A stretch of 6,533 nucleotides of DNA from a virus (taxonomy: Duplodnaviria > Heunggongvirae > Uroviricota > Caudoviricetes). The position numbers and the translations under genes are program-made. The stretch lies in IMG/VR virus record IMGVR_UViG_2693429508_000008; one strand, given 5' to 3'. Below, piece by piece: positions 1,638-6,522 of the stretch. The notes under the pieces are model-generated. The model made no database searches. It saw only the letters and a list, made by a program, of their open reading frames with translations, and was not told the origin of the DNA. The number at the start of each line of letters is the position of its first letter. The first letter of the stretch is position 1.

Positions 1638-1784
1638 TTAAATTTAGCACTGTTAAAAATTTAATCCTTAACCGGAGGGATTTCTGCACCCTCAAATCAT
1701 CAGGAGACCGCCCGAAAGGGCGGGGAGCAGTCACACATCTGTTTCCGATAGCCCCGTTCTAATGCTACACTCTTTGATATTTTT

Positions 1785-2471
1785 ATGACCCCAATAAACA
1801 TATTTATGACAGTTGCTGATTTCAAACGGCCCAAATTGGAGCTCCCAAACGGGGCAAACAAACTACTACTGCACTCTTGCTGTGCTCCATGTTCCGGTGA
1901 GGTGATGGAGGCGCTTCAGGCCTCGGGAATCGACTACACCATCTTTTTCTACAACCCGAACATTCATCCTCAGAAAGAGTATTTAATTCGTAAGGATGAG
2001 AATATTCGCTTTGCTGAACAACACGGCGTGCCGTTTATTGATGCTGATTACGACACAGACAACTGGTTTGAACGAGCCAAAGGAATGGAATGGGAGCCCG
2101 AACGAGGGATCCGTTGCACCATGTGTTTTGACATGCGTTTTGAGCGGACAGCGCTGTACGCCGCTGAAAATGGTTTCAGTGTGATCAGCAGTTCACTGGG
2201 CATTTCACGCTGGAAAAATATGCAGCAGGTTAACGACTGTGGGCGGCGAGCCGTCGCGCATTATCCGGGCATGGTGTACTGGGATTATAACTGGCGCAAG
2301 CAGGGCGGCTCGTCCCGTATGATTGAAATCAGCAAGCGCGAAAAATTCTATCAGCAGGAATATTGTGGCTGTGTGTATTCTCTGCGCGATACCAATCTAC
2401 ACCGCAAATCTCAGGGACGCCCTCTTATCAAAATTGGTCAACTCCACTACGGTAAAGAAGAGAAGGAGTGA
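1785..2471 (+). CDS. queH: QueH-like protein (DUF208; putative epoxyqueuosine reductase, tRNA queuosine biosynthesis)
   Basis: 228-aa ORF containing the [11 protein letters not shown] motif and further conserved Cys residues (CTMCFD, CGC) that I recognise as typical of DUF208/QueH. No obvious Shine-Dalgarno at ATG 1785 or the alternative ATG 1806, so the start is uncertain. Assignment is by motif recall, not by search. Confidence 0.7.
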
Positions 2472-2492
2472 TTTTATGGGGCACCTTTCTGA

Positions 2493-3429: not shown

Positions 3430-4229
3430 ATGGCACATATACAACTGGTCAAACAAACCTCTTCCGGATTACTTCTCCCGGCGACGCCGGAGAGTTGCGA
3501 TTTTCTGCATCAAATCAAAATAGGTGAGTGGATACACGCAGACTTTAAGCGTGTGTGTAACTACGCATTCCACAAGCGTTTTTTCAAACTCCTGCAACTG
3601 GGTTTCGATTACTGGACTCCGGTCGGTGGGGCGATCACGCCTCGCGAACGAAAACTGGTGTCCGGTTTCGTTGATTACCTGTGTGAATCAGTAGGCCGGG
3701 AACATACGCCAGCTCTGAGCGAAGCCGCAGAGCAATATCTGAATACAGTTGCGACACGCAGAACCAGTGATACGGCATTGCTAAAGTCGTTTGAGGCTTT
3801 CCGCGAGTGGGTAGCCATTCAGGCCGGATTTTACACCGAGCATTTTTATCCGGACGGTAGCCGTGGGTGTCGGGCGAAATCTATCGCGTTTGCGAATATG
3901 GACGAAACCGAGTTTCAGCAGGTTNCGCAGAGCAATATCTGAATACAGTTGCGACACGCAGAACCCGGGATACGGCATTGCTAAAGTCGTTTGAGGCTTT
4001 TCGCGAGTGGGTAACCATTCAGGCTGGATTTTACACCGAACATTTTTATCCGGACGGTAGCCGCGGGCGTCGGGCAAAATCCATCGCTTTTGCGAATATG
4101 GACGAAACCGAGTTTCAGCAGGTTTATAAATCTGTTCTGAATGTGCTGTGGAACTGGATTCTGTTCCGTAAATTTTCCTCTCCGGAACAAGTCGAAAATG
4201 TGGCCGCGCAGCTGCTGGAGTTTGCGTAA
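3430..4229 (+). pseudogene. Conserved lambdoid nin-region protein (DUF1367-like by recollection) with its frame broken by a ~200-bp tandem duplication containing an N
   Basis: Probable start ATG 3430 (GGAGA 6 nt upstream); the ORF-track start at 3388 is a TTG. The reading frame runs to 3942, then the same protein segment (AEQYLNTVATRR...DETEFQQV) recurs in a +2-shifted frame that continues to TAA 4227-4229. Removing one repeat copy would restore a single ORF of about 200 aa. Confidence 0.6.
3726..4124 (+). repeat. Imperfect direct tandem duplication, 2 x 199 bp (3726-3924 and 3926-4124), joined by ambiguous base N at 3925
   Basis: Copies aligned by eye: 11 mismatches in 199 bp (about 94% identity). 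Period is exactly 200 bp. Confidence 0.85.
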
Positions 4230-5259: not shown

Positions 5260-5336
5260 GGCCCTTTAGCTCAGTTGGTCAGAGCGAGCGACTCATAATC
5301 GCCAGGTCGCTGGTTCAAGTCCAGCAAGGGCCACCA
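5260..5336 (+). tRNA. tRNA with CAU anticodon (Met or lysidine-type Ile2; likely Ile by analogy with lambdoid-phage ileZ)
   Basis: Cloverleaf folded by hand: acceptor GGCCCTT/AAGGGCC, D arm GCTC...GAGC, anticodon loop CTCATAA, T arm GCTGG-TTCAAGT-CCAGC, encoded CCA at 5334-5336. Resembles E. coli ileX. Confidence 0.85.
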
Positions 5337-5337
5337 A

Positions 5338-5411
5338 CCACCACTAGCTCATCCGGATAGAGCATCAACCTTCTAAGTTGACGGTGCGAGGTTCGAGTCC
5401 TCGGTGGTGGG
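5338..5411 (+). tRNA. tRNA-Arg (anticodon UCU, reads AGA)
   Basis: Acceptor CCACCAC/GTGGTGG, anticodon stem TCAAC/GTTGA with loop CTTCTAA, T arm CGAGG-TTCGAGT-CCTCG, discriminator G5411. The 3' CCA is not encoded (CCT follows). Starts 1 nt after the preceding tRNA. Confidence 0.8.
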
Positions 5412-5416
5412 CCTGC

Positions 5417-5492
<76 letters not shown>

Positions 5493-5495
5493 TAT

Positions 5496-5570
<75 letters not shown>

Positions 5571-6244: not shown

Positions 6245-6522
6245 NNNNNNNNNNNNNNNNNNNNNNNNNNNNNNNNNNNNNNNNNNNNNNNNNNNNNNNN
6301 NNNNNNNNNNNNNNNNNNNNNNNNNNNNNNNNNNNNNNNNNNNNNNNNNNNNNNNNNNNNNNNNNNNNNNNNNNNNNNNNNNNNNNNNNNNNNNNNNNNN
6401 NNNNNNNNNNNNNNNNNNNNNNNNNNNNNNNNNNNNNNNNNNNNNNNNNNNNNNNNNNNNNNNNNNNNNNNNNNNNNNNNNNNNNNNNNNNNNNNNNNNN
6501 NNNNNNNNNNNNNNNNNNNNNN
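6245..6522. other. Assembly/scaffold gap (278 N)
   Basis: Continuous run of n characters; only 11 defined bases follow (6523-6533). Confidence 0.99.

Follow-up and report, generated by a model that had tools for sequence, protein, structure and literature searches.

A queH gene carried as a discrete cassette in lambdoid prophages of Escherichia coli, apparently captured from an enterobacterial chromosome

The QueH family (DUF208, PF02677, COG1636) consists of epoxyqueuosine reductases that use an iron-sulfur center, and no cobalamin, to convert oQ34 to Q34. Which of its residues ligate the [4Fe-4S] cluster and which the adjacent extra iron was reportedly established by Li et al. in 2021. Escherichia coli cannot make B12 de novo, and its own enzyme for this step, QueG, is B12-dependent. 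QueG is encoded on the chromosome and belongs to a protein family unrelated to QueH, with which it shares the conversion of oQ34 to Q34 (PMC9508795). In S. aureus, QueG and QueH coexist, with differential expression and different cofactor dependence (PMC13443448). Among viruses, a 2019 survey of 7-deazaguanine synthesis genes reported that homologs of QueA, QueG and QueH were absent from the genomes analyzed (PMC6884629), and our literature searches for phage or prophage QueH turned up nothing published on the copy in E. coli prophages described here.

We analyzed a 6,533-nucleotide stretch of viral DNA (the window). A sequence-only reading had proposed that its ORF at 1785-2471 encodes a QueH-like enzyme, carried in a phage accessory slot upstream of a tRNA cluster. 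The features that bear on this proposal are the following.

1735-2477, plus strand: putative minimal QueH mosaic cassette, the ORF with a leader of about 50 bp to ATG 1785 (about 70 bp to ATG 1806)
1763-1771, plus strand: extended -10-like element TGCTACACT, with TG at 1763-1764 and the hexamer TACACT at 1766-1771, 34 nt before ATG 1806
1785-2471, plus strand: maximal QueH ORF, 228 codons plus stop, uninterrupted
1806-2471, plus strand: likely true coding sequence of QueH, 221 aa, from the RefSeq/PGAP start and ortholog N-termini
1872-1895, plus strand: HSCCAPCS motif, with C32, C33 and C36 at the positions of Thermotoga maritima C9, C10 and D13 (HMMER alignment to 7lc5)
2115-2126, plus strand: CTMC motif, with C111 and C114 at T. 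maritima C87 and C90, and R110 directly before
2364-2372, plus strand: CGC motif, C194, G195 and C196, with T. maritima C169 at C194 and C171 at C196
2529-2854: hok/sok module (type I toxin-antitoxin), directly following QueH (Rfam and Pfam)
5260-5570, plus strand: phage tRNA cluster, CAU (Met/Ile2-type), Arg UCU, Thr UGU and Gly UCC (ARAGORN and Rfam)

The ORF, whose 228 codons and HSCCAPCS motif were confirmed, is a canonical and intact QueH, and the assignment to DUF208/QueH made from the sequence alone was correct. The Pfam profile PF02677 (QueH) matched residues 27-201 over positions 1-174 of its 175, that is, at full length, with an E-value of 1.9e-65 and 220.6 bits against a curated cut-off of 23.5 bits. 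A phmmer search of PDB sequences matched T. maritima QueH alone, in the form of 7lc5 and mutant entries (E 5e-22); the C9S and D13N mutants deposited there mark these as mechanistically studied positions. The AlphaFold2 model, for which an alignment of 49 diverse homologs served as input, had a mean pLDDT of 95.7 and a pTM of 0.91. Its top five Foldseek matches were all T. maritima QueH (E 5e-14, TM(target) 0.92 and rmsd 1.3 Å against 7lc5), and the next were TtuA (PP-loop enzymes), far behind with TMq of at most 0.53 and TMt of at most 0.40. The modeled protein thus has the QueH fold, with its adenine-nucleotide alpha-hydrolase-like Rossmann core. An NCBIfam profile scan of the protein gave no match, so the RefSeq name of QueH must rest on other evidence.

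The active-site residues agree with this assignment. With T. maritima QueH (7lc5, 7lc7, 9deu), to which it is about 30% identical, the window copy shares the Cys framework CC...CxxC...CGC as well as R110 and K144. We take this framework (CC-x2-C/D, CxxC, CGC) to hold the [4Fe-4S] cluster and the adjacent iron. Conservation was counted in 57 full-length representatives of a library clustered at 50% identity: C32, C33 and C36 align with Cys in 55/57, 56/57 and 53/57; R110, C111 and C114 are each conserved in 57/57, K144 being invariant too; and C194, G195 and C196 are conserved in 53/57, 53/57 and 55/57. Every one of these family-conserved residues is present in the window copy, including all seven framework Cys (columns of 53-57 out of 57), which were also invariant or nearly so in a second homolog alignment. 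At the position of T. maritima Asp13 the window copy has Cys, the choice of the family majority (53/57), so that T. maritima is the outlier. Two further differences are a basic C-terminal extension of about 25 aa, found in the window copy and its proteobacterial orthologs and not in T. maritima QueH, and the prophage location of the window copy. From its 84-92% identity to orthologs in non-phage chromosomal contexts and the purifying selection on it (see below), the window copy would be expected to reduce oQ-tRNA to Q-tRNA without cobalamin. An old suggestion linking DUF208 to RuvABC/YebC Holliday-junction resolution (PMC3403352) was considered because QueH lies near phage recombination genes; it has been superseded by the characterization of QueH.

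The real start of QueH is probably ATG 1806 (M8 of the ORF), leaving the seven codons from 1785 untranslated, since the PGAP start and the N-termini of chromosomal orthologs agree on it. In a 100%-identical locus, in E. coli FDAARGOS_944, PGAP places the start at the ATG equivalent to 1806, and the N-terminus read from this ATG matches chromosomal orthologs residue for residue (for example, Erwinia MTNPAFKRAKLELP). The product is identical to WP_012421537.1, which RefSeq names “epoxyqueuosine reductase QueH” at that locus. No Shine-Dalgarno sequence is evident ahead of either ATG 1785 or ATG 1806.

The gene is widespread in E. coli. By megablast, it was found in 995 of 5426 complete genomes, nearly always as a single chromosomal copy and annotated as “epoxyqueuosine reductase QueH”; the copy covered at least 80% of the gene in 985 of these 995 records. 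In IMG/VR, the viral contigs that carry it number 188. The window QueH is thus already known to databases, common, and a canonical family member, and the initial description of it as unexpected cargo does not hold. That description rested on the premise that enterobacteria normally use QueG. For E. coli the premise stands: queG was present in 5426 of 5426 complete genomes, and hence alongside every QueH copy. For the order as a whole it does not, with a chromosomal queH in several genera (see below).

The prophage that carries the 100%-identical copy in FDAARGOS_944 sits next to ybhA/modABC, and its genes come in the order seen in the window: a ydaV-like loader, DUF977, a small protein, QueH, hokD, DUF1367, DUF1364, a DUF1133 Q-like gene, four tRNAs and lysis genes. 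This order agrees with the placement of QueH as cargo in a lambdoid nin-like region. In E. coli 042, QueH is found in a Rac-like prophage with kilR, sieB, ydaT/U/V and trkG, and sits after the ydaV and DUF977 (ydaW-like) genes. The Rac prophage of K-12 is presumably truncated right after ydaW, and this laboratory strain may have lost the QueH cargo through deletion.

Among deposited phage genomes, the only genuine isolate with QueH is Escherichia phage HannyBb, in which it is annotated “hypothetical protein”. In PHROGs, the family of the window QueH is phrog_3217, labeled “unknown function”, and its model covers residues 41-228 only. The loss of the first 40 residues, including the CCAPC motif, is a probable explanation for why phage pipelines would miss QueH. 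This annotation gap is of practical relevance, as it leaves phage QueH called hypothetical. The short model also suggests that starts are systematically mis-called in phage records.

We ranked the closest relatives of the window QueH among GTDB species representatives.

E. albertii: 99% identity, same phage neighbors
Scandinavium: 92% identity, phage genes absent nearby
Kluyvera: 91% identity, phage genes absent nearby
Enterobacter spp.: 83-90% identity, phage genes absent nearby

Taken together, the non-phage chromosomal orthologs (Enterobacter, Kluyvera, Scandinavium, Erwinia and Providencia) have about 80-92% amino acid identity to the window QueH, and the best relatives outside E. coli, which bear the name QueH and come from Erwinia, Providencia, Proteus, Photorhabdus, Gibbsiella, Pantoea, Dickeya, Serratia and others, have 79-86%. 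The chromosomal genes of the Enterobacterales have the same length and N-terminus as the window copy and differ in their surroundings. Their neighbors are metabolic or core genes: purL on one side and glrK-glrR-glnB-hmp-glyA on the other in Erwinia, tmcA and purC in Providencia, and, in Scandinavium, Enterobacter and Kluyvera, dehydrogenase, glycosyl-hydrolase, chorismate-mutase, DHDPS and EAL-domain genes. The window copy, in contrast, lies between phage DUF977/ren-like genes and hok/sok. From these comparisons, the phage gene appears to be a recent capture of an ordinary enterobacterial queH. The clade is 75-80% identical in amino acids to copies in Sphingomonas, Stenotrophomonas, Pseudomonas and Paracoccus. 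Such high conservation across Proteobacteria points to either very strong constraint or frequent horizontal transfer. One “Bacillus subtilis” contig with a 78% QueH looks like contamination or misassignment.

The close identity to orthologs in non-phage chromosomal contexts (84-92%) makes neofunctionalization of QueH unlikely, and it speaks against a role in 7-deazaguanine DNA modification or anti-restriction, or in anti-defense, instead of on tRNA. In favor of such a role, phages do use 7-deazaguanine chemistry on DNA (PMC6884629). Yet none of the partner genes DpdA/Tgt, FolE and QueC/D/E was found in the window ORFs, in the annotated 40-kb prophage or in a 24-kb part of HannyBb, which extends to the whole prophage the earlier remark that QueC/D/E and DpdA are missing from the window. 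In addition, a PADLOC defense-system scan gave no matches, and QueA, QueG and QueH were not found in the phages surveyed in 2019 for 7-deazaguanine synthesis genes. We regard such a role as scarcely credible.

From its homology boundaries, QueH is a discrete mosaic cassette in the nin-like early region of Rac/lambda-like prophages. In comparisons with the window, homology ends abruptly on the left at 1735 in 62 of 80 IMG/VR loci. On the right it ends at 2477 (HannyBb, the shortest), 2529, 2634, 2936 or 3924, with 2936 as the boundary in 44 loci. Moreover, QueH is absent from 40 of the 43 viral contigs that share the DUF1133 Q-like gene. It is therefore a discrete insertion with flanks that vary among related phages, as in a moron. 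With the morons of lambdoid phages it shares discrete mosaic ends, a function of host type and a presence that varies among related prophages, and it has what may be its own promoter; it differs in its cargo, a tRNA-modification enzyme, whereas the usual lambdoid morons carry virulence, exclusion or toxin genes. Just left of the 1735 boundary, at 1703-1727, lies a GC-rich hairpin (ccgccc-gaaa-gggcgg) that no T-tract follows. Where another gene lies upstream, as in three loci, homology starts inside this hairpin, at about 1710. The hairpin could be what remains of a terminator, or else a recombination boundary.

The cassette includes a candidate promoter. The extended -10-like element TGCTACACT is conserved in every prophage allele of QueH. 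Of the six closest chromosomal queH loci that lack phage neighbors, five have it as well, 33-35 nt before the start (Scandinavium, Kluyvera, two of three Enterobacter, and Symbiopectobacterium), and it lies at 31 nt in an Erwinia locus. The window and Enterobacterales chromosomal queH genes have TGCTACA(A/C)T upstream in common, while Providencia has TATACT instead. More generally, 19 of 67 chromosomal queH loci show the pattern TGnTAnnnT between -70 and -10, compared with 2.5% of random 60-nt windows. A generic sigma-70 promoter and terminator scan of positions 1500-2900 found no promoter upstream of QueH and no terminator; the element was missed because its -35 is weak. We infer that TGCTACACT is apparently the native QueH promoter, carried over from the chromosome, and that it may be active in the lysogen.

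Selection on the coding sequence suggests that the gene is in use. All 80 IMG/VR copies are intact, and their 18 nucleotide alleles encode just 6 different proteins. Relative to the window allele, the most frequent of the divergent alleles has 19 synonymous and 3 non-synonymous changes; with 19-21 synonymous differences against 3 non-synonymous ones, dN/dS is about 0.03-0.04. These values indicate strong purifying selection on QueH, which is being kept for function. One could instead consider the gene inert hitch-hiking cargo, neutral or decaying, given its redundancy with the universal queG and the lack of a clear ribosome-binding site. The dN/dS of ~0.03, the intactness of 80/80 viral copies, the 985/995 E. 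coli records that retain at least 80% of the gene, and the conservation of the promoter-like element all argue the other way and make this highly improbable.

When QueH would act is a separate question. Its place is in the rightward early (nin-like) region, and it is read from the same strand as the replication and Q-like genes, so that co-transcription after induction can be expected; an isolated phage, HannyBb, also carries it. QueH could thus serve not the lysogen but lytic growth, by tuning how the NAU/NAC codons of phage genes are decoded. Against this, a putative native promoter of chromosomal type has been kept, suggesting expression independent of the phage program, and re-modifying the tRNA pool inside one lytic cycle would seemingly bring a small gain. 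We consider a primarily lytic role unlikely. It is nonetheless compatible with a role in lysogens; the two readings are not mutually exclusive.

The sequence-only reading had also grouped QueH with the downstream tRNAs into a translation-reprogramming module. The four tRNAs are indeed present, 2.8 kb 3' of QueH in the window; this spacing is inflated by about 200 bp. The inflation stems from a 199-bp near-duplicate at 3726-3924 and 3926-4124, whose halves are 94.5% identical, are joined by a single N at 3925, and break up the DUF1367/NinB-like gene, which here reads as two overlapping ORFs. A single copy is present in the reference prophage with the 100%-identical locus, which identifies the duplicate at 3726-4124 as an assembly or scaffold join artifact. 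As had been noted from the start, queuosine is made on tRNAs with GUN anticodons, and the four encoded here have the anticodons CAU, UCU, UGU and UCC (PGAP labels the CAU tRNA as tRNA-Ile, lysidine type).

To determine whether QueH and tRNAs co-occur, we used viral contigs anchored on QueH with at least 5.5 kb downstream (n=41), and took the base rate from contigs anchored on the Q-like gene, as a search of E. coli genomes is confounded by host tRNA genes. tRNAs were found downstream in 32 of 41 QueH loci and in 21 of 40 Q-like-anchored contigs without QueH (78% versus 52%, uncorrected for kinship), a modest enrichment. On the other hand, 9 of the 41 QueH loci, including that of phage HannyBb, have no tRNAs downstream. 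The QueH loci carry at least 6 different tRNA sets, at distances from QueH of 2.6-6.9 kb: CAU-Arg(UCG)-Arg(UCU) in 16, CAU-Lys(UUU)-Thr-Gly in 8, and the set of the window in 2. tRNA-Lys(UUU) takes the position of tRNA-Arg(UCU) in 8 relatives, and some carry only Thr-Gly.

That QueH and the tRNA cluster form one module, selected and inherited jointly, is very unlikely in the light of these data, the modest enrichment being the one point in its favor. The tRNA sets and distances vary, each element occurs alone, and tRNAs are common without QueH; in the 21 QueH-less contigs they directly follow the Q-like gene. The slot after the Q-like antiterminator is the usual site of tRNAs in lambdoid phages, and their position there puts them in a different transcription unit from QueH. 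The QueH cassette has sharp boundaries of its own, from 1735 to 2477-2936. Finally, none of the encoded tRNAs has a GUN anticodon, which means that none is a queuosine substrate. The tRNA cluster is a module separate from QueH, and the functional link between them is weak.

Our combined findings lead us to favor, with a probability of about 0.72, the reading that this is a bona fide QueH moron, captured from the chromosome, that gives lysogens B12-independent conversion of oQ to Q. In this view, queH came from an enterobacterial chromosome, where a lambdoid (Rac/lambda-like) phage lineage would have picked it up, apparently together with its native extended -10 promoter, and the gene would now be a discrete moron flanked by the replication/ren-like genes and the hok/sok module. 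It would be expressed from its putative own promoter in lysogens and, during lytic growth, from the early operon as well. Its product would reduce the oQ34 epoxide to the Q34 cyclopentene in host tRNA-Asp, -Asn, -His and -Tyr, providing a cofactor-independent back-up for the completion of queuosine at times of cobalamin shortage. Such a back-up is the likeliest benefit because the QueG of E. coli needs B12 and E. coli lacks de novo B12 synthesis. QueH, found in 995/5426 genomes, is redundant with QueG, which is universal in E. coli. The gut is not obviously cobalamin-poor, which counts against this benefit, and a selective advantage to lysogens is our conjecture.

It is possible, at somewhat short of an even chance, that temperate phages of a widespread family, present in ~18% of complete E. 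coli genomes, alter host tRNA modification by lysogenic conversion via QueH. If so, Q34 formation would become independent of the B12 supply, decoupling queuosine completion from cobalamin in roughly one strain in five, and the decoding of Asp, Asn, His and Tyr codons would shift in B12-poor niches. QueH would then be the first enzyme specific to the tRNA-queuosine branch to be documented in a phage, and a testable example of a prophage changing the tRNA-modification state (epitranscriptome) of its host. Apart from these points and the annotation gap, the QueH described here is an ordinary, already-named member of a characterized enzyme family.

Two further features of the window deserve mention. 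The hok/sok module downstream of QueH was recognized from Rfam sok RF01794 (117 bits at 2529-2704) and from Pfam HOK_GEF, which matches the ORF at 2642-2854 (mok/hok). A promoter-like site lies ahead of it at 2493-2522, and the module often, not always, travels with QueH, as seen from the 44 loci with the right boundary at 2936. A scaffold gap, written as 278 N at 6245-6522, lies close to the 3' end of the window.
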